Shown here in pieces: positions 1 through 28,881 of a stretch of 35,994 nucleotides of DNA. The translations under genes were made by a program, and so were the position numbers. How positions within the stretch are numbered: position 1 is the stretch's first letter; each line of letters begins with the position of its first letter. Below the pieces are notes generated by a model. That model did no database searches and was not told the DNA's origin. It saw only the letters and a program-made list of their open reading frames with translations. The stretch is taken from the NCBI GenBank assembly GCA_026983525.1, contig JALWHQ010000424.1, positions 1 through 35,994 on the forward strand, given 5' to 3'. Origin of the DNA: Anaerolineae bacterium (GTDB taxonomy: Bacteria > Chloroflexota > Anaerolineae > JAADDB01).

Positions 1-908
1 CCTGTGGACTGATACGCGTACGCGGACGTCAAAATCAGCGCACTCCATGTACCGGCCGCCACTGCCAGGTGCAGGGCGTTCACCAAGGGAGGGAAATTGA
101 GCCATACATTGATGGCGCCCAGCAGGCCGCCCAGCAGGAAAAGGGAGGCGGCGGTAAGGCTCCAGGTTCGGGCTTGCGGTTGCACAGATGTGTCCTGCAG
201 GGTCCGATAAACAAGAAGCCCCAACATCCCGCCGATGATGAGCGTCATGTATCGGTGAACCAGGTTGATCAGGGCCAGAGGATTGTCCGCAGGCCACAAG
301 CCTTCCTTGCACAATGGCCATCCCTGGCACACCCAGGCGGCCCCCGTGGTAGTGACCAGGGCGCCGGTCAAGATGAAGACGTACACCAGCAGGAGCGTTG
401 TATCCACAAGGCGCGCGAGGGGGCTACGTCTGCGGGCCAGTGTGGACGGTAAAAATGCACGCACAGCCGCCATAAGGACCAGCGCGATCATCAGGAGGGA
501 AAGGGCCAGGTGCACGGCTATGACCTGGGCGGGCAATTCGCGGATGACGGCCAATCCCCCCAGGCCGGATTCAATGAGCAACAGGGGAACGGTAAGGGCC
601 AGGTAGCGCGTTACCGGGTGGGTGATGGTCAGTTCTGCCCAGGCCAGGGCCGTGGCGCCGACCAGGAAAATGCCCACCACGCTGGCGACGAATCGGTGGA
701 TCCATTCCAGCCAGGCCGAAAATGTGGGGGGAGGAAAAAGTCGCCCGTAACAAAGAGGCCAATCAGGGCATCTGGGGCCCGGTGTGGTGCGCACTAAGCC
801 TCCCAATACAATGAGAGCATACATCAATAGGGCTGTCCCTATAATAAGATATCGGAGGAACGTAGAAGGTTGTCGTCGGACTGTCGGAAGTGTGCTGTCT
901 TCAGACAT
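1..908 (-). CDS. ctaA: Heme A synthase (COX15/CtaA family), N-terminal part; the ORF runs off the left edge of the window
   Basis: Hand translation of the reverse strand from the ATG (complement of 906-908) gives MSEDSTLPTVRRQPSTFLRYLIIGTALLMYALIVLGGLVRTTPGPRCPDWPLCYGRLFPPPTFSAWLEWIHRFVASVVG... and stays open to position 1. It is a multi-TM protein with the C-P-D-W-P-L-C motif and His-bearing helices typical of CtaA/COX15. It is absent from the ORF track, which appears to list only ORFs complete within the window. Confidence 0.7.
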   Translation of the reverse strand, partial: MSEDSTLPTVRRQPSTFLRYLIIGTALLMYALIVLGGLVRTTPGPRCPDWPLCYGRLFPPPTFSAWLEWIHRFVASVVGIFLVGATALAWAELTITHPVTRYLALTVPLLLIESGLGGLAVIRELPAQVIAVHLALSLLMIALVLMAAVRAFLPSTLARRRSPLARLVDTTLLLVYVFILTGALVTTTGAAWVCQGWPLCKEGLWPADNPLALINLVHRYMTLIIGGMLGLLVYRTLQDTSVQPQARTWSLTAASLFLLGGLLGAINVWLNFPPLVNALHLAVAAGTWSALILTSAYAYQST

Positions 909-1067: not shown

Positions 1068-1076
1068 TGGTATAAT
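1068..1076 (+). promoter_or_regulatory. Extended -10 promoter element TGgTATAAT upstream of the ParA-like gene
   Basis: TGgTATAAT lies at 1068-1076, 40 nt upstream of the ATG at 1116. No good -35 hexamer is present, which is acceptable for extended -10 promoters. Confidence 0.35.
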
Positions 1077-1115: not shown

Positions 1116-1913
1116 ATGGCCACCATCATCGCCGTCACCAATCAAAAGGGTGGGGTCGGGAAAACAACTACCGTCGTCAATCTCGGTGCTGCACTGGCGG
1201 AGAAGGGACAGCGGGTTCTCCTCGTCGACTTGGATCCTCAAGGGTCGTTGAGCAGTGCCTTTGGGGTTGACGTGGATGAGACGACACCGACGATGTACGC
1301 CCTCTTCGTTGATCCTGCCCTTGATCCGCACGATGCGATAGTCTTCGTACGTGAACGTGTGGGCCTGATTCCCGCGGATATTCATTTGGCCGCAGTGGAA
1401 TTAGAGTTGGTCAACAAGCCGGGACGAGAGTATGTGCTCAAGGAAATACTCGCTCCTTTGAAGCGGGAGTTCGACTATATCCTCATCGATTGTGGGCCCA
1501 ATCTTGGATTGCTTACGGTTAACGCCTTGTCTGCAGCCGATGAGGTTATCGTCCCCCTGGTATGTGAGTATTTGGCGCTGCGTGGGTTGGGTACATTGTT
1601 CGAAAACATTGCCCATGTCCGTCGCACGTTGAATCGCCGCCTCTACGTGCGGGGGATTCTGCCCGTTATGTACGATGTTCGTTCCTCCCACCCGCGCCAG
1701 ATCTTGGAGGAAACGCGCACGCTCTTTGGGGATTTTGTTTTTCCCATCGTTGTACGCCGCAGCATTCGCTTTGCCGAAGCCGCGGTCATCGGCGCTCCTA
1801 TCTTGGAATACGCGCCACATCATCCCGGTGCTCAAGCGTATCGTGATCTTGCGGAGGTAATCATCAATGGCCAACAAAGACGCTCCAAAGAAAACAAAGA
1901 AAACTCGTCGTAA
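1116..1913 (+). CDS. ParA/MinD-family P-loop ATPase (orphan ParA-like; not the chromosomal Soj, which lies at 28018..28881)
   Basis: 265 aa. The deviant Walker A is IIAVTNQKGGVGKTTTVVNLGAAL, followed by LLVDLDPQGS and a Walker B-like YILIDCGP. The 3' end overlaps the next ORF by 47 nt. Confidence 0.85.
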   Translation: MATIIAVTNQKGGVGKTTTVVNLGAALAEKGQRVLLVDLDPQGSLSSAFGVDVDETTPTMYALFVDPALDPHDAIVFVRERVGLIPADIHLAAVELELVNKPGREYVLKEILAPLKREFDYILIDCGPNLGLLTVNALSAADEVIVPLVCEYLALRGLGTLFENIAHVRRTLNRRLYVRGILPVMYDVRSSHPRQILEETRTLFGDFVFPIVVRRSIRFAEAAVIGAPILEYAPHHPGAQAYRDLAEVIINGQQRRSKENKENSS

Positions 1914-3171
1914 GGAGAAAGTGGAGAAGGTCCTTCAGGATCGAGTAAAAAATACGGTCGGACGTGGAGTTCTGGCCTACTTTTCCAGCGAGGGGGCTTC
2001 CTCGTCAGAAACGGTATCCTCTCCCCCTGACATTGATGCCGCGCTGGGGGCCATGTTGGACGAGGAGGTAAAGGCCGCGGGGAATGTCCACGAGGAGTTG
2101 AAAGAGCCGCCCCCTTTGGCCAAGGCGGAGCTGGTGGCCGGTGAAAGGCCCTCTTCGGCCGAAACCCCACCGTCGGAGGCGGAGACACCTCTGCCCCCGG
2201 ATCCCGCTTCGTCCGAACCACCCGCGGGTGAGCCGGAGATGGCGACTCCTCCCCCTGAAGAGGAGGCTGTGGCGCCTGTGGCAGAGGATATTACTCCCCC
2301 ACGTTTGCGTCCCGCGGGCACACTTTTGGAGTATCCTATGGAGGTGGAGGCGACACCACCGGGTCCTGGAAGCGAGGCGACGCTGGAGATTCCCGAACCG
2401 GAGACACCCACTCCTACCCTCTCACGCGAGGAAATCGTTCTGCGGATTTCTGAAGAGCACTTCAAGGAATTGGAGAAGGAGATCGGCCAGTTGTACGATG
2501 CCGTCCCGCGTGCCTTGGCTTCCCACAAGGAGGCCGCAGATGAGGCCCTCACCACCCTCCATGAGGCGCGAGCGCTCCTTTGGGGAGCCCCTGAGCGCCT
2601 GGTGGATGTGGAGTACCGGGTGAACCAGGTTAAGACCCTCATTGAACGTCATAAACTCAGTGCAAAGTGGGCCGCGGTGTATGGGCGCCGACTTTTTATC
2701 TATGAGACGGTTTGGCTTTTCGTTTTGCTGGGGGCTTTCGTGGGCGTTCAGTTGGGACAAAAGAGCCTTCTTGCATGGGTCGGCACACTGGTGGGAAGCG
2801 GTGCAGACACGACGTTTACCGGTGTACTGGTTCCCTTCCTGAACAGCCTGATTTGGGGAGGGATTGGTGGTGTGGTAGGGGCACTTTACAGCCTATGGTG
2901 GCATGTCTCCCAATTGCAGGATTTCGATAAGCGCTACAATATGTGGTATTTGGTACAGCCCATCATGGGTATTGTGTTGGGTGGTATCGTGTACCTTATC
3001 ATTGCCACCGGATTTCTGGCTTTGCAGGGGAGCCTGCCAAGCGCTGAAACGGCACGTGGCGTACAGATGTTTCCGTCCCTCGTCGCTGTGCTGGGAGGGT
3101 TCCGCCAAAAGTTTGTGTATGAACTCCTGGATCGCATCATTCGCGTGCTGACGCCGACGCCCGAGGGATAA
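1867..3171 (+). CDS. Hypothetical membrane protein with a Lys/Arg-rich N-terminal tail, a Pro/Glu-rich disordered region, a helical segment and a C-terminal 4-TM Gly-rich domain; candidate ParA partner
   Basis: 434 aa. The ATG at 1867 is preceded by GGAGGT at 1852-1857. The first 28 residues (MANKDAPKKTKKTRRKEKVEKVLQDRVK) contain 12 K/R. About 150 residues of P/E/A/S-rich low complexity follow, then four hydrophobic helices encoded at about 2690-3140. I recognise no family motif. Confidence 0.7.
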   Translation: MANKDAPKKTKKTRRKEKVEKVLQDRVKNTVGRGVLAYFSSEGASSSETVSSPPDIDAALGAMLDEEVKAAGNVHEELKEPPPLAKAELVAGERPSSAETPPSEAETPLPPDPASSEPPAGEPEMATPPPEEEAVAPVAEDITPPRLRPAGTLLEYPMEVEATPPGPGSEATLEIPEPETPTPTLSREEIVLRISEEHFKELEKEIGQLYDAVPRALASHKEAADEALTTLHEARALLWGAPERLVDVEYRVNQVKTLIERHKLSAKWAAVYGRRLFIYETVWLFVLLGAFVGVQLGQKSLLAWVGTLVGSGADTTFTGVLVPFLNSLIWGGIGGVVGALYSLWWHVSQLQDFDKRYNMWYLVQPIMGIVLGGIVYLIIATGFLALQGSLPSAETARGVQMFPSLVAVLGGFRQKFVYELLDRIIRVLTPTPEG

Positions 3172-4982: not shown

Positions 4983-5079
4983 GATAGGAGGGAAGATGAC
5001 AAGCTAATGACAAGCGAGATGGGGATTTCTCCTTCTCACAGATCTTTTGGACAGGGCACTTTGCAAAGGAGTGAGGCCT

Positions 5080-6531
5080 ATGGTGAAGCGAAGCGATCTC
5101 GTACAAATTGCGCCTTACCTGTACGAAATTCCCAAGTCGTATCGGGCGGACATGCGCGTGCCGGCGCGCTTCTACGCTAACGGGGAACTTTTGGCCAAGG
5201 CTCTGGAAGACCGTTCGCTGGAGCAACTGGTCAACACGGCCACGCTGCCCGGGGTGGTGAAGTGGGCCCTGGCTATGCCGGACATTCATCAGGGCTACGG
5301 CTTCCCTATCGGTGGCGTGGTGGCCACCAAGTTGCCGAACGGCATCATCTCCCCGGGAGGCGTGGGATACGACATCAATTGTGGTGTGTGCCTTCTGGCA
5401 TCCGATGCGGATGAAGGGGAGGTTCGCCCCTACTTGGAGGATCTGGCTACGGCATTGTACGAGTACGTGCCCAGTGGTGTGGGTGTAAAGGGGTTCGTGC
5501 GGCTTTCGGATAAGGAACTGGACGAACTTATGGTCAGGGGCGCACGCTGGACCCTGGAACGCGGGTACGCGCGGCCGGAGGACTTGCGTCACACCGAGGA
5601 AGGGGGCGCGATGAAAGGCGCGGATCCGAGCAAGGTGAGCAAGAAGGCCCGCGAGCGAGGGCGCGCCCAAGTCGGCACGCTGGGCGCGGGCAACCACTTC
5701 GCCGAAATCGACGTCGTGGACGAGGTGTTCGACGCGGACGTGGCCGCGGCCTTTGGGCTTTGGGAGGGCCAGATCGTGGTGCAAATTCACTGTGGGAGTC
5801 GGGGGTTCGGCCACCAGATTTGTACGGACTACGTGCAACTCTTTCAGAAGGCCATTCGCAAGTACGGCATCACATTGCCCGACCGGGAGTTGGTGTGCGC
5901 GCCCTTTGACACGCCCGAAGGGCAATCCTACTTCGCGGCCATGGTTGCCGCGGCCAACTACGCCTGGGCCAACCGTCAATTGCTCACCCACCAGGTGCGC
6001 CAGGCCTTCGAGACCGTACTCGCCGGAAAGGTAAAGGGCTTTGACCTGCGCGTCGTGTACGACGTGGCGCACAACATCGCCAAGCGCGAGTTCCACGACA
6101 TCGACGGCAAACGGATGGAAGTGCTCGTCCATCGCAAGGGCGCGACGCGCGCCTTCCCCGCCGGCCATGAGGCCATTCCGGAGGACTATCGCGATTACGG
6201 GCAGCCCGTGCTGGTTCCGGGATCCATGGGCACCGCGTCGTGGGTGCTGGTGGGCACGCCCAGCGCCATGGATCAGACCTTTGGGTCGTCGTGTCATGGG
6301 GCCGGACGAATGATGAGTCGTCGCCAGGCGACCAAGCGGGTGCGCGGCCAGACGCTCATTGAGGAGTTGAAGCACGAGGGCATTGTCGTGCGCGCGGGCA
6401 GCATGCGCGGTGTGGCCGAGGAAGCCCCCTTCGCGTACAAGGACGTGGATCTGGTGGTGGAGGTGGTGCACAACGCCGGCATCGCGCGCAAGGTCGCCCG
6501 ACTGCGCCCCATTGCCGTGGTGAAGGGATAA
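5080..6531 (+). CDS. rtcB: RNA 3'-phosphate/5'-OH ligase RtcB
   Basis: Motifs seen: [50 protein letters not shown] and SSCHGAGR. The ORF track starts at 5047. The ATG at 5080 follows AAGGAGTGAGG and is the likelier start. Confidence 0.9.
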
Positions 6532-6540
6532 CGGACGTTC

Positions 6541-6575
6541 GCGTGTGGGCCAGGCGCACGCCCTGGCCCACACGC
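6541..6575. terminator. GC-rich hairpin filling the gap between the convergent rtcB and aor stop codons (candidate bidirectional terminator)
   Basis: A perfect 14-bp stem pairs GCGTGTGGGCCAGG (6541-6554) with CCTGGCCCACACGC (6562-6575), with a 7-nt loop. There is no U-tract on either side. Confidence 0.5.
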
Positions 6576-8396
6576 TCATACAATCCCCAGTCGTTTCAAC
6601 GTTTCTTCTCGAGGCTCTCCCGTCTCCTCGTCCCACCCTCGAACGCGGTAATAGTGGCGGAGCATCTTGTCCACGTCGGGCGCATACCCGGCAGAGGGGC
6701 CGTCTGCGAGGGGCTGACGTAAGAGTTTGGGCAGCGTGTCGTCCGCGCGGGTCATCCCCAGCCGATGGTTGAGCCATCGCTTGAATGTGTAGATGCGTTC
6801 TCCCGCGCGGGCAACGTCTTCAACCGTCCAATCCCATCCCGTCACAGCATTGAGTAAATCGACCATTCCCTGGGCTGTTACGTCTTCAAAGTGACAGAGG
6901 ATAACGGAGTTGGTGAAGGCGCGGTAGTCTATCACCCGCGCCACGACGCGTGCCTTCTCCTCCGACTCGTCGTGTGGGTCGCCCATGACTATTCCCAGTT
7001 CGGGTACCTCGCGGCCGGTGTCCACGTGGTACATATCCCCGGACATGTGATCGGCCCCGCGCGTGGCTGTCGCATAGACCAGGGCCAATCCGCTGAAAGC
7101 GCGCGGGTCGTGATACGGCACCTCGAGGCCCTTCACATGGGCGGCCTCATCCGGAACGCCCCAGTACTCGCCTGCACGTTTGACCCCTTCGGCGAGGATG
7201 TCGCCGATTCCCTCGCGGTGAGCGATCTTTTCCACAAGGGCAATGGCTGCCCGGCTGTTGCCCCAGGAAAGGTCGAGCCCGTCGACATTGGCGGGGGTGA
7301 GTTTGCCGGTGTTGTAGAGGTGAAACGCGAAGGCCACGGCAGCGGAGGTGGAAATGGTGTCCAGCCCGTAGCGGTTACAGAGGTGTCCCGCGTAAGCGGC
7401 ATCGGCCAGGTTATCCGACCCGACTATGAAAGAGAAGCCAACGGCCGTCTCGTATTCGGGTCCGTCCACTTTGGGCTGGTCGTACTCGGGCAATTGGATT
7501 TCCCGACCACAGGCGATGGGGCAGCGATAGCAGGCCACATGGCGGAGCAGGTAGGTGTCGTTCAGCGTGGGGGCGCTGACCTTTTCCGTCCACGCTTCCA
7601 CGTCCCCTTGCGTGTAGTAACGCGCGGGCACGTCGCCGTACATGGCCCCGACTTCTGTGTAGAGGATGGTGCCGCCCAACCGAAGCATTTGCGTGTAAAT
7701 GTCATCCAGAACGTGGCGCATGGTGCGGCGCAACGTGTCGCGAAATGTGTCCGGGTGGGCGATGGGCACTTTCTGACGACCGTGAACAACGATGGCTTTA
7801 AGTCCCTTGCTGCCCATTACTGCGCCCATGCCTGTGCGTCCGGCAGCGCGGCCGTGGTCGTTCATGATTGCCGCGTAGCGCACAAGGCGTTCCCCGGCCG
7901 GGCCTATGGCCGCCACCTTTGCCTTGGGAAGGTTGAGATCCGCGCGCAGGCGGTCTTGCACCTCGTACGTGTCCAGCCCGGCCAGGTCGGGCCGATGGAT
8001 GAGCTGTGCCCGCCCCCCTTCGATGACGAGGACGGCCCAGGGTTCAGCCTGACCGGTGATGATGATCCCATCGTATCCGGCAAAGCGGAGTTCCGGGCCC
8101 CAGAAGCCCCCACTGTTGGCCTCGCCTACGAAGGTCGTGAGGGGTGAGCGGGCCACAACACTGTAACGTCCGGCAGCGGGGATGGGGGTGCCCACAAAGG
8201 GACCGGTCATGAAGATGAGGGGGGCTGCTGGATCAAAGGGATCGGTGTCTGGAGTAAGGTAATCTGCAAGGAGTCGGGCTCCCAGCCCTGACCCGCCCAC
8301 GAACCGGCGGGCCATGTCCATATCCAGAGGGATGTCTTCCAAGCGCCCGCTGGACAAGTCGACGAACAAGAGCCTGCCCATGTAGCCGTAATGCAT
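6576..8396 (-). CDS. aor: Aldehyde:ferredoxin oxidoreductase (tungstopterin AOR family)
   Basis: The N-terminus is MHYGYMGRLLFVDLSSGRLEDIPLD...GGSGLGARLL. A Cys cluster CYRCPIACGR is present, the length is about 607 aa, and a DxxGLD-type C-terminal region is typical of AOR. The ORF extends to 8561, but the ATG at 8396 has a GGAG 9 nt upstream and matches the usual AOR N-terminus. Confidence 0.8.
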   Translation of the reverse strand: MHYGYMGRLLFVDLSSGRLEDIPLDMDMARRFVGGSGLGARLLADYLTPDTDPFDPAAPLIFMTGPFVGTPIPAAGRYSVVARSPLTTFVGEANSGGFWGPELRFAGYDGIIITGQAEPWAVLVIEGGRAQLIHRPDLAGLDTYEVQDRLRADLNLPKAKVAAIGPAGERLVRYAAIMNDHGRAAGRTGMGAVMGSKGLKAIVVHGRQKVPIAHPDTFRDTLRRTMRHVLDDIYTQMLRLGGTILYTEVGAMYGDVPARYYTQGDVEAWTEKVSAPTLNDTYLLRHVACYRCPIACGREIQLPEYDQPKVDGPEYETAVGFSFIVGSDNLADAAYAGHLCNRYGLDTISTSAAVAFAFHLYNTGKLTPANVDGLDLSWGNSRAAIALVEKIAHREGIGDILAEGVKRAGEYWGVPDEAAHVKGLEVPYHDPRAFSGLALVYATATRGADHMSGDMYHVDTGREVPELGIVMGDPHDESEEKARVVARVIDYRAFTNSVILCHFEDVTAQGMVDLLNAVTGWDWTVEDVARAGERIYTFKRWLNHRLGMTRADDTLPKLLRQPLADGPSAGYAPDVDKMLRHYYRVRGWDEETGEPREETLKRLGIV

Positions 8397-8436
8397 AGGC
8401 GCGTTCTCCGCAGAGTGATGGGGGTGAGAACCGGAC

Positions 8437-8886
8437 CTATGAGTCCTCTTCTGCCAACGGCCAGGGGAAGTGTTCCAGGGCCACGCGCGCTTCCTGCAGG
8501 AATTGCACGGCCAGGGGATCTGGATACTCGCCCGCGTACACCACGCGTACGAGCCCGGCATTGATAATCATCTTCGCGCAGGTCAGGCACGGCTGGTGGG
8601 TGACGTAAATGGTCCCGCCCCGCACGCTTACCCCGTGAAGCGCGGCCTGGATGATGGCGTTTTGTTCCGCGTGGAGGGTGCGCACACAATGCCCCCCCAC
8701 CATCAGGTGTCCCACATCATCACAGTGAGGGAGGCCCATGGGGGCGCCGTTGTAGCCGGTGGTGAGGATGCGCTTTTCCTTGACGATGATGGCGCCCACA
8801 TGGGCTCGATCGCAGGTGCTGCGCGTGGCAACTTGAAAGGCAATGCTCATGAAGTATTCATCCCAGGAGGGGCGCTTTTGGCCCAT
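8437..8886 (-). CDS. dCMP deaminase (ComEB / cytidine-deoxycytidylate deaminase family)
   Basis: 149 aa. The start is PSWDEYFM. The zinc motifs HAEQNAI and PCLTCAKMIINAG are present. Confidence 0.85.
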   Translation of the reverse strand: MGQKRPSWDEYFMSIAFQVATRSTCDRAHVGAIIVKEKRILTTGYNGAPMGLPHCDDVGHLMVGGHCVRTLHAEQNAIIQAALHGVSVRGGTIYVTHQPCLTCAKMIINAGLVRVVYAGEYPDPLAVQFLQEARVALEHFPWPLAEEDS

Positions 8887-8907
8887 GTGTTACCTCGACT
8901 TTCGGAA

Positions 8908-9579
8908 TCAAGTACCAAAGAGACGATCGCCCGCGTCGCCCAGACCAGGAACGATGTACCCGGCCGGTGGGTCGCCTGGCTTTTGGGGAGGCGGTGTCAG
9001 GTGATCGTCCAACACGGCAAGGAAGATTTCGACATCTGAGAATCGGCTACGGACAAATTCGACGCCTTCGGGCGCGCCTACCAATCCGAGAAACTTGACC
9101 CGTTTCACCCCCCGTTTTTTGAGAAGGGCAATGGTGGCTGCTGCTGAGCCACCCGTTGCCAGCATAGGATCCAGCACAAGGCCCAGGCTGATGGGCATTT
9201 CTGGGGGTAACTTTTCGTAGTAGGTAATAGGCTGCAAGGTTTCTTCGTCCCGATAGATGCCGACAGGCCAGACGGTAGCATTAGGGACTACGCTGAGCAC
9301 GCCTTCTACTAAACCAAGGCCCGCGCGTAGGATGGGCACTAGGCCCACACGCTCGTCGAGATCGTAGCCCGTAGTTTCGGCAAGAGGCGTACGAACCTGC
9401 CGTGGTTTGATGCGTGCATCATACAGGGCGGCCCATGCAAGCCATGTAGCCACTTCTTGGGCCAGATTTCGGAACTCCCGATGGTGCGTGTTCACGTCGC
9501 GCATCAAGGTTATTTTCGTTTTCGTGAGCGGGTGCTCGCTCACGAAAACGCCGGGCTGGATTTCTCGAACCCATTCCAT
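8908..9579 (-). CDS. upp: Uracil phosphoribosyltransferase
   Basis: The PRPP loop LVLDPMLATGGSA and the C-terminal YIVPGLGDAGDRLFGT are present. The start is taken at the ATG at 9579 (GAGAGGAG upstream) rather than the ORF-track start at 9627. Confidence 0.88.
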   Translation of the reverse strand: MEWVREIQPGVFVSEHPLTKTKITLMRDVNTHHREFRNLAQEVATWLAWAALYDARIKPRQVRTPLAETTGYDLDERVGLVPILRAGLGLVEGVLSVVPNATVWPVGIYRDEETLQPITYYEKLPPEMPISLGLVLDPMLATGGSAAATIALLKKRGVKRVKFLGLVGAPEGVEFVRSRFSDVEIFLAVLDDHLTPPPQKPGDPPAGYIVPGLGDAGDRLFGT

Positions 9580-10006: not shown

Positions 10007-10298
10007 GTCGTCTCTCGCCCTGTGAGGTTTTTGTCCTAACTTCGTGCAGCGCGGAAATTTTCTCAAAAGAGCGGGAAATTGTCAACTTGTCGACTTCCCA
10101 TAAATTGCGGGGAGCACAACCTCATTGTGTCAGAGCGTTGGAGGAGTATGGTTACTGCTTCTTTTCCCAGTCCTTGTTCTTGACCGATATTGGCCGGGGG
10201 AAAGGGCATTTGCGTAACCTTATTTGCCAGTTGTGCGTCTTTTACCACAGCCAAGGGTTGAGATAACGGAAGAGCCGAAGGGAGGGGGACCTCACAAC

Positions 10299-13200
10299 AT
10301 GAAAAAATTTATACCTTTGGGAGACATGAAACATTGGCTTACGTTGGTTCTCCCTCTGGTATTTGTCGGATTGCTGGTAAGCCTCTCGCCTTTTTCCTCT
10401 GATGCGGCCCTGACTCGTGTCCGTTATCTCACGCCTTACCCGACCCCACGCAATAACCCTATGTCATTGGTGCGCTATCCGGGCATCTACGCGGTGGATT
10501 TCTGGTGGGGGTTAGACCCTAACCGCTATCACTTGGTAGGTGCACTCTACAACGGCATCAATTGGTCGCAAGTCGAGACGCAACCCGGTCAATACGACTG
10601 GACGGTCATCGATCAGTGGCTGGACTTCCAACTCTCAACGGGCAAAGTGGGCGGGCTGCCCATTAGCACGTACAATGGCCGATGTTGTGGGGGAATTGGG
10701 GCCCTGCCTCCTTACCTGCGTCAGCCCGATACCCTGATTCAAGTGGCACCTGACTGGTACATCCCCAACTATTGGAGTCCTAAGTACCTTAACGCGTACA
10801 AGAACTTTATCTATGCCTTGGGGCGACGCTATCGGAATGATCCCCGCGTCGAATGGGTGGCCATTGCGACAGGTATATACGGAGAGACGCGCGCGGCGGA
10901 CTGGGTCGATATCGGGGTTCTGCGCAACATGGGTATTACCAGTCAGATGTGGATCGATTATGTGAATCAAGTAGCGGACTGGTATCTTGATGCCTTCAGT
11001 GAAAATGGCCAGTTGAAGAAAGTATTGCTCCAACAGGCTGCGCCTTATACATTCTCTCCGCGGGAGCGCACAGCCATTCAATTGTACGCGGTACAACGGG
11101 GTATTGGAATCTCCTTGAATGCCCTTTTTCCCCAACAGGAAAATGCTTATTATGCGGAGAACTCTGCGTGCAATCTGTGTGGCATTTATGATGTAGTTAC
11201 GGCCTACCAGGAACAAATTCCTCTGGCGTTCGAAACGTATGAAATGTTTTTGTGCACGGAGACGTTCGTTTACTGGGGCATGTTGAATGGCTTGGACAAA
11301 CATCCCACCTACCTTCGGTTGGATGAAGATCTTTTCTATAAGACACCACCAAACGATCCTCCCAAGGACGGTAGCAGAGACAAGGTCGAGAATATTCGCC
11401 TTTTCGGATGGGTCTCCAAATATCTGGGGGTGACCCCTAACACTTCCCCCAGTGCGTGGGTGGCCTTGCGCGAGCACATCTACCCGGATCAAAAGTGCTG
11501 GCAAACGGCACCTGGACCCGCGCCCAATAAGCCCGACTGGGGCAATTACGAATTTTACCTGCAGCAGGATGATGGTGTTCCGGGGGGGCGTACGGTTCCC
11601 GCTACCAACGATCCCAGCGTCGTACACATGCGTTACCATTACAACCCTTACGACCCGAAAATCCCGCCTGGGCGTGAGGGGTGGAGTACGCGACGTACCG
11701 ATCAGGCCAGTGGCAATCCTTACATGTGGTTCAAACTCGACGATCGTTTCCTGTTTGGGGGCTCAAACACCGTTACTGTCACTGTGACGTATCTTGATGT
11801 GGGTACAGACGCCTGGCAATTGCGTTATGATGCAGCCGGAGGCATCGAGAAAGCAGCCGTACCTCGCGGGGCGACGGTTCCTGTTGTCCAAAAACGCAAC
11901 ACAGGTACGTGGCAACAGGCAGTCTTTGTAATACCTGATGCCCGTTTTGCTAATGGGTTGCGTGGGGGGAGCGATTTTGTCATCGATTCCCTCAATGATG
12001 GAGATGAGTACATTCACTTTGTGGACGTTGCACGGCCTGGCGCAAATCCTGGGCCTCCCCCTCCGCCTGATCCGCTTCCTACTCCTACACCGACCTTGTC
12101 CGCGCGTGCCCGCTATCAAGTTCCTTATCTGCCAACGCCTCCAACCTTGGACGGTGATGTAAGCGAATGGCAGGGTATTCCTTCTTTCCGTTTGAATTTG
12201 AACACAGCCTCTTTCGTCTCCATTAAACAACATGCTTTACCTACCGATCCAGATGTTACCCTATGGGTTGGGTGGCGGCCAGAGGGCCTATACGTGGCGG
12301 CTCAGGTTCAGGACGCCAGCCACGTGAGCGATAGTGCAGACATATGGCGAGATGACTCGATAGAAATTGGAATAGATAGTACGGATGATGGCAGGGTCGA
12401 TTGGAATCAGGGAGACCGTCAGTATACCATAGCGATTGATGGTCGCGTGGCACGGCACGGGTTTGCGAGCACGGACCTACAGCCCACTATTCGGAGAACA
12501 TCGGGTGGATGGGTAGTGGAAACGTTAATTCCACATAATAGATTAAACCTCGCACCGCTTTCACAGGGGCAAAAATTAGGTTTCACCTTTGGGTATCACG
12601 ATGATGACGATGGTCAGGATTGGGATACTTATCTCATTTGGCAAGGGAATAGTACGAGTAAGAACACGTACCAGTGGGCATCGCTGTCGCTCGTTACCTG
12701 TACAGGAACGTGTCCTACAGCGACTCCAACTCCTACTCCCACGCCTGTGTCTTCACCATCTCCAACTGCAACTCCTACTGTTGCTGCCTCTCCCACGCCG
12801 ACGCCTACGCCTACCTTGGATCCGGATCGTACACTGCTTTTTGCTTATCGCACCGATATCGGCGTAGATGGGAATTTAGGGGAATGGTCTGTACCCCTTG
12901 CAATCTTGGATGCATCTACGGCCCAGACCGTGCTTAATTCGCCTCCCTCTGCCGATCCGCGTGTGTACTTATACGGAGCCTGGAACGAGACGGGGCTTTA
13001 TCTGGCCGCGCGCATTACCGACACCATGCTCTTTACGGATAGCCTCAAACTTTGGTACGATGACTCTCTGGAGTTCGGCATCGACGGGGCTCACGATCAC
13101 CAAGCCCATTGGGATCAAGATGACCATCAATTCACTATTGGTGTGGATGGGCGTGTAGCCCGCTTTGCAGTGCCCATATCGAGCCTCTCTCCGGCTATCC

Positions 13201-14960
13201 GACGCACGGGTACGGGTTGGGACGTAGAAGTTTGGATTCCTGCGGGTGTGCTGAAGGCTGGCGCATTAGAAAGTGGCAAGGTCATTGGATTTACATTTGC
13301 TTACAACGATGATGATGATGGTGGGGCGCGCGATCATTATCTTGTATGGGCAAGCAACAATACCACTCAAAGCAAAGCCGACTATGGACACATTGTTTTG
13401 GAGGCTCCTTCCTCGCCCGGGACTGTGCCTACGTCAACACCAACCCCGACTCTGGCCGTCTCGCCAACGAATACACCCACGCCTACCCCAACCCCAACAT
13501 CTGTAGGATTACCCACGGCTACACCTACTCCTACTTTATCCCCTACGCCGACGTCCACGCCAACGCCCACGCATACGCCTACTGCTACCGCGACGCCTAC
13601 CCCCACATCCACTCCCACCGCTACGCCGACTTTGACACCAACGCCTTCTCCCACCGCGACTTACACCCCCACACCCACTCATACGCCGACTCCCACGCCT
13701 ACATCGACGCCTACCCCAACACCTACACCTTCACCAACTAACACCCCCACACCCGATCCTGCTCGGATAATAGAGTTCCCATATCGGACCGATGTGGCCG
13801 TAGACGGCGTATTACGGGAGTGGGGGGAAACCTTGGCCACTCTCGATAGGACAACTGCTCGCACGATGAGTACAGTCCCCCCGAGAGATGATGATCCGCG
13901 CGTGGAACTCTATGGGGCCTGGAATGAAGGGGGGCTCTACATCGCAGCCCGAGTGAGCGATGCGGTCACCCAAAGCGATAGCAACGCTCTCTGGCACGAC
14001 GATTCCATCGAGTTAGGCATTGATGGACGTAACGATCACGAGGCTCACTGGGACCAAGACGATCATCAGTTCACCATTGGAGTGGATGGCCGGGTAACGC
14101 GTTTTGCCACGCCCATCGCATCTCTCGTATCGGAAGTGCGTACCACGGAAGGGGGCTGGCTGATGGAAGTATGGATCCCTGCAGAGGTGCTCAACGCGGG
14201 TGCGCTCACCACCGGCCGCATGATCGGGTTTACTTTCGCTTACAACGACGATGACGACGGAGGAAGACGCGACTACTACCTCGTTTGGGCCAGTGATAAT
14301 ACTACCCAGAGCAAAGCGGATTATGGGCATATTTTGTTGGGAGATCCTGTCACCCCTACCCCCACACCAACGCTCACCCCTACACCTACTCCAACCTTTA
14401 CGGCAACGCCCACATATACTCCAACCTCAACGCCGACACCGACGCCCACGAATACGCCCACGCCCACATCGACACCTACATCCACACCTACGTGGACGCC
14501 CACCTATACGCCTACCCCAACATCCACGCCCACTCCTACACCGACACCTACGCCAACACGTACACCTACCCCTACGACCACACCAACTGCGACGTCCACT
14601 CCCACGCCCACTCCCTCGCCCACACCCAACTGTGGAACCAATTGCGAGGTAGTTATCGTAGGACAACTCTTTTTCGACGGAGATGGAAACGGTGTGTATA
14701 ACCTTGGGGACAGGCCCATTCGTTATGAGCGCTTGCTTCTTACGAGGGGACAACTACAGGCAGCGTATGTGACGTTCACAGATTCTGAGGGGCATTTCAC
14801 GTTTCCGCCGGTGCCGGCTGGACGTTACTTGCTGTATCTGCGCCAGCAGGATGGCGGGCTTTTGCTTAGGGTGGTCGATGCTACCTCGGAGCAAGTGGTT
14901 CGGGTTGTGCTCTCCTTGCCATTGACACAACGGACGAGTGTACCTTATATCGCGCGATAG
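10299..14960 (+). CDS. Large secreted multidomain carbohydrate-active protein: signal anchor, glycoside-hydrolase-like TIM-barrel region, three CBM9-like modules with Pro-Thr linkers, and a C-terminal SdrD-B/Cna-B-like fold
   Basis: The ATG at 10299 follows GAAGGGAGGGGG. The N-terminus is [55 protein letters not shown] resembles the GH42/GH35-type motif. The three CBM9-like modules carry W(R/Y/H)DDS(I/L)E(I/F/L)GID and D(Q/R)Q(Y/F)TI...DGRV motifs. The C-terminal [14 protein letters not shown]...[19 protein letters not shown] resembles an SdrD B-like domain. The catalytic family is not certain. Confidence 0.8.
12103..12700 (+). repeat. CBM9-like module, copy 1 (the most diverged) within the large CDS
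   Basis: Motifs seen: [21 protein letters not shown]...[16 protein letters not shown]...[11 protein letters not shown]...[12 protein letters not shown]...[12 protein letters not shown]. Confidence 0.65.
12714..12816 (+). repeat. Pro-Thr linker 1 (low-complexity ACNCCN codon repeats)
   Basis: It encodes [34 protein letters not shown]. Confidence 0.85.
12817..13406 (+). repeat. CBM9-like module, copy 2 (paralogous to copy 3)
   Basis: Motifs seen: [14 protein letters not shown]...[18 protein letters not shown]...[38 protein letters not shown]...[38 protein letters not shown]. Confidence 0.75.
13407..13760 (+). repeat. Pro-Thr linker 2 (about 118 codons)
   Basis: It encodes [32 protein letters not shown]...[26 protein letters not shown]. 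Confidence 0.85.
13761..14346 (+). repeat. CBM9-like module, copy 3 (paralogous to copy 2)
   Basis: Motifs seen: [14 protein letters not shown]...[18 protein letters not shown]...[38 protein letters not shown]...[38 protein letters not shown]. Long identical peptide stretches are shared with copy 2, but synonymous sites differ. Confidence 0.75.
14347..14629 (+). repeat. Pro-Thr linker 3 (about 94 codons)
   Basis: It encodes [42 protein letters not shown]...[10 protein letters not shown]. Confidence 0.85.
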
Positions 14961-16434: not shown

Positions 16435-16591
16435 CCGCATCTTGCCCCTTGTGCGTGGTTACTTCATTCGTCGTTTCTCTCCGTATTTCGTATACGGAGT
16501 AACGGAGAAGTGGTAATGTTGTGTCAGGGTTTTGTTGTTATGGGCTTCTTGCTCTGACCCTCGAAAATCCTTCTGGGAAGTTGTGTATTTA

Positions 16592-16600
16592 TGCTATAAT
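16592..16600 (+). promoter_or_regulatory. Extended -10 element TGcTATAAT upstream of the glycosyltransferase operon
   Basis: TGcTATAAT lies at 16592-16600, 28 nt upstream of the GTG at 16628. The SD sequence GAAGGAGAGG lies at 16611-16620. Confidence 0.4.
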
Positions 16601-16627
16601 CTCCACGCCCGAAGGAGAGGTAAACAA

Positions 16628-17788
16628 GTGGCCAGAGGTTCTCACGTTGTGCTCAATGCGTTGCTGATGAATCTGTCCCCGACCTATCGGGGTGCCGGCA
16701 TTAGCGCTTATGAGCAGCATCTGCTCTCTTCTCTGGCTTCTGTGGAGAAGGATATGACGTTTACGGCCGTTGTTGCCGAGCCTGTATGGCAGGCTCCACA
16801 ACCTATGCGTGTTTATCGCGCGCCCAGGTGGGTCCAGCGCCCCATGTTGCGCATCCTGTGGGAGCAGGTCCGCTTACCCCTGGTAGCGCGACAGATCAAG
16901 GCCCACCTGCTTCATGCCCTGGCTTTTGTGGCCCCGGTACAGGGCCTTTCCATCCCCCACATAGTGACCGTTCATGACTTGAGTTTCGTGCGCTTCCCAC
17001 GAACGCTTCCTGCCTGGAAGGCCCGCTACCTCCGCTGGTTCACGCGCGTGAGCCTGACGCGCGCGGCTCGCATCATCGCCGTATCTGAGAGCACCCGCCG
17101 TGACGTGTTGGCCTGGCTTTCTTTGCCGCCCCATCGGGTCGTCGCCGTGCCCAACGGTGTGGAGTCCCGCTTTCGCCCGCTTCCGTCTGGAGAGGTGGAG
17201 CAATGGCGCGCTCGCAAGGGACTCCCAGAGCGATTTGTGCTTTACCTGGGCACCCTTCAGCCCCGCAAGAATTTGGAGACTCTGGTGCGCGCGTTCGCTC
17301 AATGGCGAAGAGAGGCCCCTTCTTCCATGCATGATGTGGCCCTCATCCTGGCGGGGGCGAAGGGGTGGTTCTACTCTCGCCTGTTTCGTTTGGTGGATGA
17401 ACTGAAGGTGCGCGATCATGTGCTGTTTCCCGGCTATATCCCGTCCGAGGAATTGCCCCTTTGGTACAACGCCGCCACCCTTTTCGCTTATCCATCCTTG
17501 TTCGAGGGCTTTGGTTTGCCCGTGTTAGAAGCCATGGCCTGTGGCACGGCTGTGCTGGCCGCGGATTCATCGTCCCTGCCGGAGATTGTGGGTGACGCGG
17601 GCTTGTTGCTTCCGCCTACCGATGTGGAGGCCTGGGCCAAGGCGCTGGGAGGTCTACTTGCTGACGAAGAAAGGCGAGCAGCGTTGGGACAGGCGGGTGT
17701 GGCACGGGCGCGAAATTTCTCTTGGGAGCGCACGGCCCGTGAGACCATAGCGATCTATCAGGACGTCCTGAGCACTATCCATGAATAA
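16628..17788 (+). CDS. Glycosyltransferase family 4 (GT-B, retaining type)
   Basis: The motifs YPSLFEGFGLPVLEAMACGTAVLAADSSSLPEIVGD (E-x7-E region) and LGTLQPRKN are present. The start is taken at the GTG at 16628, behind a strong SD. The ORF track opens at 16532. Confidence 0.85.
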   Translation: MARGSHVVLNALLMNLSPTYRGAGISAYEQHLLSSLASVEKDMTFTAVVAEPVWQAPQPMRVYRAPRWVQRPMLRILWEQVRLPLVARQIKAHLLHALAFVAPVQGLSIPHIVTVHDLSFVRFPRTLPAWKARYLRWFTRVSLTRAARIIAVSESTRRDVLAWLSLPPHRVVAVPNGVESRFRPLPSGEVEQWRARKGLPERFVLYLGTLQPRKNLETLVRAFAQWRREAPSSMHDVALILAGAKGWFYSRLFRLVDELKVRDHVLFPGYIPSEELPLWYNAATLFAYPSLFEGFGLPVLEAMACGTAVLAADSSSLPEIVGDAGLLLPPTDVEAWAKALGGLLADEERRAALGQAGVARARNFSWERTARETIAIYQDVLSTIHE

Positions 17789-19217: not shown

Positions 19218-19279
19218 CACACGAGTACGCCCACCAACTCCGTTCGGCACCTTACCCCACTTTTTTAGGAGAGCAAACG

Positions 19280-26232: not shown

Positions 26233-27120
26233 TCACCTCCCTTCCACAATGGCCTCATAAATTGCCTGCAGTTCTTCATCTGAATAGAAGTGAATGACGA
26301 TTTGTCCACCGCGCTTTCCCTTCCGCACTTCGACTTTGGTTCCTAACACATCGCGAAAGGCCCGCTCCACGGCCTGGAGTTCCGGGGGGAGGGAGGGCTT
26401 TTCCGGTGGCTTCCTCTCCGTCTTGTCCCCTTGCACGATGCGCCGCACCAGGGCTTCGGTCTCGCGCACGCTCAATCCCTTTTCGATAATGTGCTTTAGC
26501 ACACGACGTTGCATGTCGGGGTCGTCCAGCGCGAGGAGTGCCCGCCCGTGTCCCTCGCTGATTTTCCCCTCCAACAGCGCGGCCTGAGCCTCTGGGGGCA
26601 GGTTGAGCAGACGCAGGGTGTTGGTCACGGCCGCGCGGCTTTTGCCGACACGTTCGGCCACTTGCGCTTGCGTAAGACCAAAGCCATCGATCAGGCTCTT
26701 ATAGGCAGCCGCAGCTTCGAGGGGATTCAAATCCGTCCGCTGCACGTTTTCCACGAGGGCCCATTCTACCAGTTGCTGGCGCGTGGCGTCCTTGACGATG
26801 GCAGGGACGTGGGTGAGTCCGGCCATTTTGGCTGCACGCCATCGGCGCTCACCGGCGACGATATAATAGGGGACAGGGCTGGTGGGGTCGGCGCGGGCAA
26901 GGATGAGGGGCTGGAGAACACCGTGGACGCGAATGGATGCGGCCAGTTCGGCCAGGGCCTCCTCATCGAAACGACGGCGAGGCTGGTGGGGGTTAGGGGC
27001 AATTTGGTCGATAGGGATTTCTTCTGTGATGTCGTCCATCAAGCGCCGCGTCGTGCGCCGCTCCCCTTCTGTTAGAAGGGCTTCTAAGCCTTTCCCAAGG
27101 CCGCGTTTTTTCTGGGTCAT
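26233..27120 (-). CDS. parB: Chromosome partitioning protein ParB/Spo0J
   Basis: Motifs seen: IPIDQIAPNPHQPRRRFDEEALAELAASIRVHGVLQPL, the ParB box VAGERRWRAAKMAGL and the HTH segment TQAQVAERVGKSRAAVTNTLRLL. Confidence 0.92.
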   Translation of the reverse strand: MTQKKRGLGKGLEALLTEGERRTTRRLMDDITEEIPIDQIAPNPHQPRRRFDEEALAELAASIRVHGVLQPLILARADPTSPVPYYIVAGERRWRAAKMAGLTHVPAIVKDATRQQLVEWALVENVQRTDLNPLEAAAAYKSLIDGFGLTQAQVAERVGKSRAAVTNTLRLLNLPPEAQAALLEGKISEGHGRALLALDDPDMQRRVLKHIIEKGLSVRETEALVRRIVQGDKTERKPPEKPSLPPELQAVERAFRDVLGTKVEVRKGKRGGQIVIHFYSDEELQAIYEAIVEGR

Positions 27121-27220: not shown

Positions 27221-27982
27221 TTATTCTACCACAGGGGGGCGACGGGCAATGACAAAGGCACAGTTACCATCGCGCAAGCGCTGGCGGGCCTCCACGGCCA
27301 CAAGCAACCGGATCAAGGGCAAGAGAAGCAGGGTCCGCCCCACGCGATATCGGCTCCACTTCCACAGTTCCCAGGCCAGGGTGCCCCAGCGCCCGTGGGT
27401 GTACACCGTGCGTTCCACCCTCAAGCCCGCGCGCTGCATTTTCGCTTCCAACTCTCCTCGCCGGTATCCCTCGCGCGCGTGGAGCGGGTTCTTCAGGTGA
27501 TCCAGGTCGAAGCGGCGGAACCAGTGCACCTGGGGGGTAAGGGGCGTGTGCACGGCGAGCCAGCCACCCGGGCGCAGGGCCTGGGCCATGTGGGCCAGTG
27601 CCTTTTCGTCCTCTTCGATATGCTCGAGCACGTCGATGGAGTAGATGAGGTCGTAAGCATCGGGTGGCAGCGAAGCGGTCAAGTCACCCTCCACGAAGTG
27701 CAGGTTGTCCAGCCGCGAGCGCCGGGCCTCCGCCTCGGCACGGGCCACGACATCGGGGCGGTTGTCCAGCCCCGTCACTTGAAGGTGGGGAAACGCGCGC
27801 GCCAGGTAGAACGCGTGCTTCCCCGTACCACACCCTGCGTCGAGAACGGTCTTGGTCTCCGGGGTGATGAGGGGAACGACCAGGCGGAGGAACCAGCGAA
27901 ACCGGATGGCTTCCCCCACGTGGTAATCAAGACGGCGGGCCAGTTGCCAGTGCCATGTGCGCAGCGTTGTCATGGCCCCCAT
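27221..27982 (-). CDS. Class I SAM-dependent methyltransferase (Methyltransf_11/25-like; does not resemble RsmG)
   Basis: SAM motif I VLDAGCGTGKHAFYLA and the acidic loop LDNRPD are present, followed by DLIYSIDVLEHI. The start is taken at the ATG at 27982, behind a perfect AAGGAGG. The ORF-track start at 28126 would overlap parA by about 109 nt. Confidence 0.78.
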   Translation of the reverse strand: MGAMTTLRTWHWQLARRLDYHVGEAIRFRWFLRLVVPLITPETKTVLDAGCGTGKHAFYLARAFPHLQVTGLDNRPDVVARAEAEARRSRLDNLHFVEGDLTASLPPDAYDLIYSIDVLEHIEEDEKALAHMAQALRPGGWLAVHTPLTPQVHWFRRFDLDHLKNPLHAREGYRRGELEAKMQRAGLRVERTVYTHGRWGTLAWELWKWSRYRVGRTLLLLPLIRLLVAVEARQRLRDGNCAFVIARRPPVVE

Positions 27983-27991
27983 GGGTGCGTT

Positions 27992-28029
27992 AGCCTCCTT
28001 ATGCAGCCTGAGCCTCCTTATGCAGCCTG
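27992..28029. repeat. Perfect 19-bp tandem duplication at the parA stop / methyltransferase SD junction
   Basis: AGCCTCCTTATGCAGCCTG occurs at 27992-28010 and again at 28011-28029. On the minus strand each copy reads CAGGCTGCATAAGGAGGCT, which is a stop codon followed by an SD sequence. Confidence 0.9.
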
Positions 28030-28881
28030 CTCCGAACGGACGGCGACGGTTGTACGAGAGGAAACGGAGCCGCTTGCGCGGGAGGGTATCTCCTCGCGCG
28101 GGTAAGGCCACCCCAACCGTTGGCAAAATTCCTGGGCCAGGGCCCGGTACGCCTGCGCGCCACGCGAGTGGGGCGCATACCGCCGAATCACCTCTCCGAA
28201 ACTGGGCGCCTCGCCCAGTTGCACGTTGCGAGGAATCACGGTGTTGAACACGCGTTCTCCAAGGACATGCCGCACGTTCTCTTCAACTTGTTGGGAGAGT
28301 TTGGTGCGGGCGTCGTACATGGTGAGCACCACGCCGGCGATGTAGCAACGGGGGTTCAGTCGCTCCCGTACCAGGGAGATGGTCTCCCAAAGTCGGGTGA
28401 GACCTTCGAGGGCCAGGTATTCGGTCTGCACGGGGATGATAACCCCTGCGTTGACCGCGACCAGGGCGTTGATGGTTAGCAGCCCCAAACTGGGCGGGCT
28501 GTCGATCAAAATGATATCGTACCCCTCGAGCACGTCGGTCAGTGCATTGCGCAGGAGGTACTCCCGCCCTTCGACATCGACAAATTCCACCTCTACTCCG
28601 GCCAGGTCGGGGTGTCCTGGCACCACGTCGAGGTTGATCTCTTCTGTCAGGGCGATGGTGTCGGAGAGGGAGGCGCGACCAATGAACACATCGTACAGGG
28701 AGAGGGGGAGATCCAGGGCGGGGAGACCCAGGCTACTGGTGGCGTTGGCCTGGGGATCCGCGTCGACGACGAGTACCCGGTAACCGCCCGCGGCCAGGTA
28801 CGCGCCCAGGTTCACGGCCGTCGTTGTCTTGCCCACACCCCCTTTTTGATTTGCCAGAGCAAACACGTGAGCCGTACTCAT
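28018..28881 (-). CDS. parA: Chromosome partitioning ATPase ParA/Soj
   Basis: Motifs seen: VFALANQKGGVGKTTTAVNLGAYLA, VLVVDADPQANATS and IILIDSPPSLG. It lies in a parA...parB locus. The start overlaps the pfkB stop in an ATGA arrangement. Confidence 0.92.
   Translation of the reverse strand: MSTAHVFALANQKGGVGKTTTAVNLGAYLAAGGYRVLVVDADPQANATSSLGLPALDLPLSLYDVFIGRASLSDTIALTEEINLDVVPGHPDLAGVEVEFVDVEGREYLLRNALTDVLEGYDIILIDSPPSLGLLTINALVAVNAGVIIPVQTEYLALEGLTRLWETISLVRERLNPRCYIAGVVLTMYDARTKLSQQVEENVRHVLGERVFNTVIPRNVQLGEAPSFGEVIRRYAPHSRGAQAYRALAQEFCQRLGWPYPREEIPSRASGSVSSRTTVAVRSEQAA

Follow-up and report, generated by a model that had tools for sequence, protein, structure and literature searches.

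What does an additional ParA-type ATPase act on when the same chromosomal region already encodes a canonical parA/parB pair? ParA/MinD ATPases are the main known means by which bacteria place large cargos, and many orphan members have no known partner. The question is raised here by a 35,994-nucleotide (nt) stretch of DNA from an Anaerolineae bacterium (Chloroflexota; GenBank assembly GCA_026983525.1, contig JALWHQ010000424.1), which we refer to in full as the window. It encodes an extra ParA-type ATPase whose gene overlaps that of a 434-amino-acid (aa) membrane protein of an unnamed family, hereafter the partner. Our analyses indicate that the two overlapping genes probably code for a cognate pair of ParA and partner, with a peptide mimicking ParB that would let nucleoid-bound ParA position or tether the membrane protein.

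Much of the gene layout had been described in an earlier note made from the sequence alone, and most of that description holds. An ATPase with a KGGVGKTT deviant Walker A motif is indeed encoded at 1116-1913, as its translation and its match to Pfam AAA_31 confirm, and in both the open reading frame (ORF) list and the sequence the partner ORF opens at an ATG (1867) that gives a 47-nt overlap with the ATPase gene. The GGAGGT Shine-Dalgarno sequence is present as well, one base from the 1852-1857 that the note had given (Table 1). Public assemblies carrying the contig independently call the same two overlapping genes. The overlap and the Shine-Dalgarno sequence within parA fit co-expression of the pair. 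Twelve Lys/Arg residues (nine Lys, three Arg) do fall within the first 28 residues of the partner, followed, as the note had said, by a low-complexity stretch (residues 40-186, rich in Pro, Glu, and Ala), a helical segment (187-273), and Gly-rich hydrophobic helices. By hydropathy and AlphaFold, these four helices comprise three strong segments (274-303, 319-340, and 359-393) and a weaker fourth (393-412). The canonical parA and parB genes that the note placed elsewhere in the window were also recovered, both on the minus strand.

The sequence that would link the partner to ParA lies immediately behind its basic tail. The earlier note had made the tail itself the key feature; the tail is real, but the long Lys/Arg run is limited to close relatives from the window's own branch (P0002-P0021, L001-L005), and in more distant homologues its place is taken by just a short MAKKRAS lead-in. 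What is conserved instead is a ParB-type motif just after the run, which in the partner reads VGRGVLAYF and follows the pattern hydrophobic-G-R/K-G-hydrophobic-x-A-hydrophobic-hydrophobic. It aligns position by position with residues L11-G12-R13-G14-L15-S16-A17-L18-I19 (LGRGLSALI) of Myxococcus xanthus ParB. In alignments of the family, the motif appears as GRG(L/V)DA(L/Y)F, or as KRAS(I/L)KG(R/K)Gx(D/E)ILFG in other branches, and the N-terminus of the window's own ParB (MTQKKRGLGKGLEALL, containing LGKGLEALL) carries the motif that the partner matches. In M. xanthus ParB, four hydrophobic residues (L11, L15, L18, and I19) surround a central basic residue (R13; R/K), and experiments showed that these hydrophobics and the central R/K mediate ParA binding and activation (PMC12462528, 2025). 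According to the same study, which combined mutagenesis, nuclear magnetic resonance, and hydrogen-deuterium exchange, the peptide takes the form of a short helix, R13 adjoins ParA residues Y81, E82, D110, and E117, and the ParA dimer has two peptide sites. Residues 34-39 of the partner form a short helix in its AlphaFold model. In many homologues (P0155, P0169, P0175, P0182, P0197, P0202, P0211, and others) the motif is doubled in tandem, for example as KRASLKDKGPETLG-LTPKKGKGIDVLFGG or as KRASLKDKGPETLG followed by KKGKGIDVLFGG. Such tandem copies fit the two peptide sites of a ParA dimer, both of which a single chain could fill.

If the two genes form a pair, they should be found together in other genomes, and the motif should go with the ATPase. 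Scanning species-representative genomes with two peptide patterns, a scan that may have passed over cultured species, yielded 74 partner loci, each of them in a metagenome-assembled genome (MAG) of Anaerolineae, Caldilineae, Ardenticatenales, or a related Chloroflexota lineage; every partner homologue in this study comes from a MAG. Adjacency was assessed by tblastn of the ParA paralogue against these loci, of which 70 were testable and 4 were not. At 51 of the 70, a co-oriented ParA paralogue (40-72% identity) lies directly upstream and overlaps or abuts the partner gene. The adjacency that the earlier note had wanted checked in related genomes is thus widespread, a divergent branch included, and the pair looks like a Chloroflexota-wide system. 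No third gene is a conserved neighbor in the neighborhood analysis, which found only lineage-limited murA (convergently downstream at 21 loci), pncB (at 12), and ABC/ECF transporter genes.

The motif and the ATPase co-vary across these loci. When partner N-termini were scored with a hidden Markov model (HMM) of the motif, 47 loci had both the upstream ParA and the motif, 18 had neither, four had ParA without the motif, and a single locus had the motif without ParA (Fisher's exact test, p=5.6e-12, a test that ignores phylogenetic relatedness). All four exceptions with ParA keep half or variant motifs (GIDALF, GVSALF, KGLGNDRSF, and EGKGEEMVPDRGLPF). On a neighbor-joining tree of the partner C-terminal domain, admittedly a crude tree, loci without ParA are spread over at least seven separate clades, so joint loss of gene and motif appears recurrent rather than a single event. 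Intermediate states are seen: one locus (L041) has ParA remnants together with a half-decayed motif, and in a pair of ParA-less sisters the motif is intact in one (L023) and decayed in the other (L025). The divergent branch (L073, L075) has a different partner motif, EGKGEEM(V/L)P(D/E)RG(L/I)PF, with ParA still directly upstream. In the ParA of these two sequences, the equivalent of M. xanthus V116 is Y and that of E117 is K. The latter change would reverse the charge beside the central basic residue of the peptide and is suggestive of a joint change in partner and pocket.

The ATPase itself retains the pocket residues that would receive such a peptide. It matches AAA_31 at 4.9e-58 (196 bits, cut-off 27) and CbiA at 5.9e-25, and falls under every NCBIfam equivalog cut-off, so it is unassignable to a named orthologue. 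With the window's canonical Soj it shares 46% identity. Its best relatives of solved structure are Mycobacterium smegmatis 4PFS (4e-60) and M. xanthus ParA 8RAY (6e-59), followed by Thermus thermophilus Soj 1WCV (7e-49); the latter two matches cover residues 3-254. By these comparisons, the ATPase belongs to the ParA/Soj branch. Across 48 orthologues of the paralogue, Walker A residues K11 and K16 are invariant. The hydrophobic peptide pocket of M. xanthus ParA maps onto it as V116 to L96, L150 to L130, L152 to L132, L155 to V135, L187 to V168, and L192 to L172, and two polar positions as Y81 to Y61 and E117 to E97; all eight are conserved or conservatively substituted in the 48 orthologues. 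Two pocket positions differ in the window: the equivalent of E82 is A62, and that of D110 is H90, the latter a feature of the window's clade where other members of the paralogue group keep the D110 equivalent. Of 15 subfamily-specific residues, eight are common to 4PFS (A26, E29, L45, I89, R156, H192, L197, and F219; nine if the start Met is counted) and absent from canonical ParA/Soj. The match to 4PFS is no greater than that to M. xanthus ParA, and orthology with the actinobacterial proteins PldP/Rv1708 is no more than a possibility.

We rejected membrane binding of the MinD type for this ATPase because the amphipathic C-terminal membrane helix is absent: the tails of the 48 orthologues are short and polar (e.g., EVIINGQQRRSKENKENSS). 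In addition, the match to the NCBIfam model minD_bact reaches 60.7 bits where the cut-off is 212.9, and no minE or minC lies nearby. The residue equivalent to R189 of Bacillus subtilis Soj is R189 in the window ParA, and R215 and R218 are mostly conserved.

The partner is a different kind of protein from ParB. The earlier note saw no ParB box, helix-turn-helix (HTH), or CTPase motif in it, and profile searches agree, with no ParB_N, HTH_ParB, or other Pfam, NCBIfam, or PADLOC family found; even at E<=1, none of PF02195, PF17762, and PF23552 appears, all three of which the window's real ParB matches. Judged by its domain content, the partner is thus not a ParB, as it has no CTPase, HTH, or dimerization domain, yet it has the motif with which ParB binds ParA. 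The best Pfam/NCBIfam E-values are 0.0075-0.02, the best in a sequence-profile search of the PDB is 0.1, and matches to PEP-utilisers_N, SemD, FtsX, and PilC (E 0.007-0.65) were dismissed as noise. When PDB structures were searched with Foldseek, the full model reached an E of 0.16 at best and a domain-only model (predicted local distance difference test score [pLDDT] 81) one of 0.48, with TM-scores of at most 0.36; fold matches to G-protein-coupled receptors, BAR domains, and designed helices were rejected at E>0.1 and TM-score <0.36. Neither sequence nor fold therefore places the partner in a characterized family, in keeping with the earlier note, which could assign it to none.

The partner family is nonetheless sizeable. 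A word-indexed search returned 144 homologues at E<=1e-3, all annotated "hypothetical," and the named organisms among them are Chloroflexota MAGs. An HMM of the conserved C-terminal domain, searched exhaustively, matched 1652 clusters at 50% identity with E<=1e-3, of which 346 reached E<=1e-30; the top 150 of the 1652 were inspected. Alignments divide the proteins into a variable N-terminus, a conserved helical region, and a strongly conserved membrane module. One motif-less, ParA-less member (P0219; locus L078, 1038-2342) lies between rnpA-rpmH and priA, a replication/origin-type neighborhood.

Between the motif and the helical region, the partner of the window has a disordered acidic linker (21% Pro, 17.5% Glu, 14% Ala; net charge -24; mostly pLDDT below 50). 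Its length varies among homologues between ~25 and over 400 residues, so a long tether is not essential. Within the linker lies an acidic amphipathic helix with the consensus D.(D/E)LAA(L/M)L(D/E).E..AA. This helix is kept in ParA-linked and ParA-less homologues alike; its retention without ParA or the ParB-like motif implies that it serves something other than ParA, and it probably binds a different partner. PP..R.GG and PPGPG motifs precede the helical domain, in which L209, L231, R235, P242, and E249 are invariant (first alignment).

AlphaFold, run with a 98-sequence alignment, models residues 190-430 as all-helical at pLDDT above 90. After the first cytoplasmic helices, a long helix (242-296) runs from the cytoplasm into the first transmembrane (TM) segment and is followed by a helix at 298-309, TM2 (315-350), TM3 (356-386), a helix at 393-412, and a terminal helix (414-428). 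The 4-TM module has the signatures YE..WL, WGGIGGVVGALYSLWWH, QDFD, WYLVQPIMG (WYLVQPxMG in the family), and GGFRQ (GFRQ in the family). Because basic residues flank the cytoplasmic helix ends, the positive-inside rule would put both the N- and the C-terminus inside; this predicted N-in/C-in topology is the one needed for the N-terminus to meet ParA.

The 4-TM module also occurs in a second context. A 1419-aa protein (P0238) combines EAD7 and an nSTAND1 NTPase with five tandem 4-TM modules that are 24-28% identical and keep all signature motifs. Such five-fold tandem recurrence argues that the module is an autonomous domain reused in another context, and suggests a mobile domain found also in conflict-type STAND proteins. 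The gene occupies 5001-9260 of locus L076 and 3909-8168 of L077, among HNH, IS110-transposase, and RRXRR genes. A word-indexed protein search with the 4-TM profile returned short Chloroflexota fragments only and no new architectures. The nSTAND1 protein prompted us to consider a defense or toxin role for the partner, which we set aside given the lack of a PADLOC match and the housekeeping contexts.

How might such a pair work? The layout of the partner, with a basic run and motif, a disordered linker, and a conserved membrane domain, matches the module described for ParA/MinD ATPase partners, which act through charged, disordered N-termini (PMC10241942). By analogy with established ParA biology (PMC12462528, PMC10241942), we envisage the following sequence of binding, ATPase stimulation, DNA release, and positioning. 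The ATPase, a Soj-like ParA paralogue without a membrane helix, would most likely coat the nucleoid as an ATP dimer. The partner would be anchored in the cytoplasmic membrane through its conserved 4-TM module, and its acidic flexible tether would project the N-terminal peptide, a mimic of the ParB motif that binds and activates ParA. On contact, the peptide would stimulate ATP hydrolysis and release ParA from the DNA. The membrane protein, or an assembly that it nucleates, would thereby be tethered transiently to the nucleoid and distributed by ParA diffusion-ratchet logic. The earlier note had proposed that the 434-aa protein is either the adaptor or the cargo of a ParA-based system that positions a membrane-embedded structure. 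The synteny and the lack of any known unrelated family support the adaptor-or-cargo part; to position a structure embedded in the membrane would be just one output among several that are possible.

Several points weigh against a cognate pair of this kind. The motif is nine residues long, and its 16-column HMM is underpowered: in a six-frame scan of the window, the true ParB N-terminus ranks 3rd of 671 with E=0.37, and the partner itself reaches just 5.4 bits. No adjacent ParA was found at 19 of the 70 loci (27%) despite enough upstream sequence, so the membrane protein also has a ParA-independent role. The locus with a perfect motif and no adjacent ParA (L023) might use a distant ParA or the canonical Soj. 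Because the position equivalent to R189 is basic in just 28 of the 48 ParA orthologues, nucleoid binding by the paralogue is likely but not secure. The relatedness that the Fisher test ignores and the crude tree behind the clade count belong on the same side.

We considered what else could explain these observations. One idea is that the adjacency is incidental, with the ATPase serving some other cargo and the ParB resemblance being a chance short Gly/Arg-rich sequence. The small size of the motif, its lack of significance in the six-frame scan, and the quarter or so of loci without ParA would all be accommodated. Chance does not readily produce synteny at 51 of 70 loci across 40-72% ParA identity with genes overlapping or abutting, repeated joint loss of motif and ParA, or a divergent branch in which motif and pocket are altered together, and a rough hand calculation from average amino-acid frequencies puts the probability of such a pattern in the first 60 residues of a random protein at ~5e-5. 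We regard incidental adjacency as effectively excluded. A more substantial alternative casts the membrane protein as a landmark or anchor and not a cargo, capturing or stimulating ParA (the paralogue, and possibly Soj) to organize or tether the chromosome, comparable to HubP, TipN, PopZ, or DivIVA-type factors acting on ParA or to the DNA-membrane link made by Noc. Cross-talk with the chromosomal system is plausible here, since the partner motif is nearly identical to that of ParB in the same window and the pocket is kept in both the paralogue and Soj; L023 retains the motif away from any adjacent ParA; P0219 sits in chromosome-maintenance territory; and the same contact would tether membrane to nucleoid whichever side is named the cargo. 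Yet the known polar landmarks HubP, TipN, and PopZ do not, to our knowledge, use a ParB-type activating peptide. The loss of a dedicated, co-translated ParA together with the motif points to a private two-component system, and the eight signature residues shared with 4PFS suggest insulation from Soj. On balance, we find the landmark role rather unlikely.

More doubtful still is placement of the division site or septum, in which the pair would sense where the nucleoid lies and signal this to the membrane-embedded machinery for division or septation in filamentous Chloroflexota, in the manner of MipZ, PomXYZ, PldP, or Noc. The 74 loci come from Anaerolineae, Caldilineae, and relatives, whose cultured members are filamentous, and murA is convergently downstream at 21 of them, though this linkage concerns a minority of loci and a convergent gene. 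The paralogue shares subfamily-specific residues with the mycobacterial orphan ParA-like protein 4PFS, and actinobacterial orphan ParAs (PldP, Rv1708/MSMEG_3743) have cell-division phenotypes (PMC10482377; bioRxiv 10.1101/2025.07.02.662783), though 4PFS may not correspond to any of them. Neither ftsZ, ftsA, sepF, nor min is among the conserved neighbors, and Pfam, NCBIfam, PDB profile, and Foldseek searches detected no similarity of the partner to known divisome proteins. A cognate pair in which the ParB-like peptide brings the membrane protein to nucleoid-bound ParA thus remains the reading that we favor.

Compared with known systems, such a pair would be closest to chromosomal ParABS (Soj/Spo0J and M. 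xanthus; PMC12462528), with which it shares a Soj-like ParA, the same hydrophobic peptide pocket, an N-terminal motif after basic residues in the partner, and two adjacent, co-oriented genes. It differs in being additional to the canonical parAB of the window and in the partner, which has an acidic linker, helices, and a 4-TM module in place of the ParB/Srx CTPase, HTH, and dimerization domains; without these domains, a parS-type centromere is not expected and the cargo would not be DNA. McdA-McdB, which positions carboxysomes, and other ParA/MinD cargo systems (PMC10241942) are likewise two-gene modules of an ATPase and a largely disordered partner, with a charged N-terminus proposed to bind and stimulate the ATPase and the remainder on the cargo. 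McdB, however, is soluble and sits on a protein organelle, while here the partner is a polytopic membrane protein and its peptide is ParB-type, not merely positively charged. ParC-ParP and PpfA-TlpT, which position chemoreceptor arrays, also use ParA-like ATPases to organize signaling clusters, membrane-associated or cytoplasmic, with respect to the nucleoid or poles; their partners carry CheW or receptor domains in chemotaxis operons, whereas a Pfam scan of the partner and the neighborhood analysis found no chemotaxis gene or domain at this pair. The logic of McdAB, PomXYZ, and ParC-ParP is the same, and what sets the present pair apart is a polytopic membrane partner bearing the chromosomal ParB motif. 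Like the actinobacterial orphans PldP, Rv1708/MSMEG_3743, and 4PFS, the ATPase is an extra ParA beside parAB, but neither PldP nor Rv1708 has a known dedicated partner, and here one is encoded next door. Noc, HubP, TipN, and PopZ are functional analogues in that they couple the nucleoid or partition machinery to the membrane; none is homologous to the partner, and the three landmarks have no ParB-type motif. Noc is a ParB paralogue that binds the membrane through an N-terminal amphipathic helix; there a DNA-binding protein reaches the membrane, and here a membrane protein would reach a DNA-bound ATPase.

If this reading is right, the partner can be named from sequence alone: a ParB peptide carried by a membrane protein rather than by a DNA clamp would define a new partner class and make the ParB motif a portable module. 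It would also provide a search rule, since scanning the N-termini of genes beside extra parA copies for a ParB-type motif may reveal more partners. The family is large (at least 1600 clusters at 50% identity), its 4-TM domain has no Pfam entry or structural relative, and the pair suggests that Chloroflexota, a large phylum with little-studied cell biology, have a system for coupling nucleoid and membrane. A literature search, which did not cover all journals, found no paper describing such a pair, and we know of no earlier ParA system with an integral membrane protein as direct activating partner. More speculatively, a ParB-mimic peptide on a polytopic membrane protein of unseen fold, together with its own ParA, could be a widespread Chloroflexota device for membrane-nucleoid coupling, the first with an integral-membrane activating partner, that sets the spacing of a membrane complex, or of septa, in multicellular filaments, with the 4-TM module as an autonomous unit such as an oligomeric channel or pore. 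We offer this wider proposal tentatively, as a possibility and not as our expectation; if true, the autonomous unit would explain the reuse of the module in nSTAND conflict-type NTPases.

The features of the pair and of the canonical partition genes are collected in Table 1. A consensus promoter scan of the plus strand found no full sigma-70 site, and no good -35 element lies upstream of the -10 candidate; the promoter/terminator scan was uninformative.

Table 1. Coordinates in the window of the features of the ParA-partner pair and of the canonical partition genes.
Feature	Position	Strand	Details	Basis
Possible extended -10 element	1068..1076	+	TGgTATAAT, ~40 nt 5' of the ParA start	sequence reading; weak evidence
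ParA/Soj-type ATPase paralogue	1116..1913	+	265 aa	ORF list, Pfam, structure profiles
Deviant Walker A motif	1146..1169	+	KGGVGKTT, residues 11-18, with signature lysine	translation
Shine-Dalgarno sequence of the partner	1853..1858	+	GGAGGT, inside the ParA coding sequence	sequence; 8 nt before ATG 1867
Partner gene, membrane protein of unnamed family	1867..3171	+	434 aa	ORF list, homologue searches
Lys/Arg-rich run	1867..1950	+	residues 1-28; 12 Lys/Arg, net charge +8	composition
ParB-type ParA-binding motif	1957..1983	+	V31-G-R-G-V-L-A-Y-F39	family alignment, ParB comparison
Disordered Pro/Glu/Ala-rich acidic linker	1984..2424	+	residues 40-186	composition, AlphaFold
Acidic amphipathic helix	2029..2079	+	residues 55-71 (DIDAALGAMLDEEVKAA)	AlphaFold helix 56-70, pLDDT ~90
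Conserved cytoplasmic helical region	2425..2685	+	helices 187-216, 221-240, and 242 onwards into TM1	AlphaFold pLDDT above 90
4-TM module	2686..3150	+	helices 242-296, 315-350, 356-386, 393-412	hydropathy, AlphaFold helices, invariant columns
Canonical ParB	26233..27120	-		Pfam ParB_N, HTH_ParB, and ParB_C; translation
Canonical ParA/Soj of the chromosome partition system	28018..28881	-		Pfam AAA_31 1.6e-56; translation

Several other genes of the window are of interest in their own right. Immediately after the canonical parB, 6 nt downstream and co-oriented with it, comes a gene for a 436-aa bactofilin-domain protein (24916-26226, minus strand; PF04519, 2.2e-09). In Myxococcus, a bactofilin-PadC scaffold adjoins parAB, and by analogy this protein may be a ParAB-associated cytoskeletal scaffold. 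A class-I S-adenosylmethionine methyltransferase gene (27221-28126, minus strand; Methyltransf_25 and Methyltransf_31, ~1e-22) is found between the canonical parA and parB, genes that are usually adjacent. Divergently upstream of the extra ParA gene is a heme A synthase-like gene (1-908, minus strand), which on the full contig is a 609-aa COX15/CtaA and UbiA(CtaB) fusion; it is not a conserved neighbor of the pair in other loci. Finally, three CBM9-like carbohydrate-binding domains occur in a 1578-aa protein (10224-14960, plus strand), which is encoded beside a cluster of glycosyltransferase and sugar-transferase genes (16532-21666); together these genes probably make up a cell-surface or exopolysaccharide locus.

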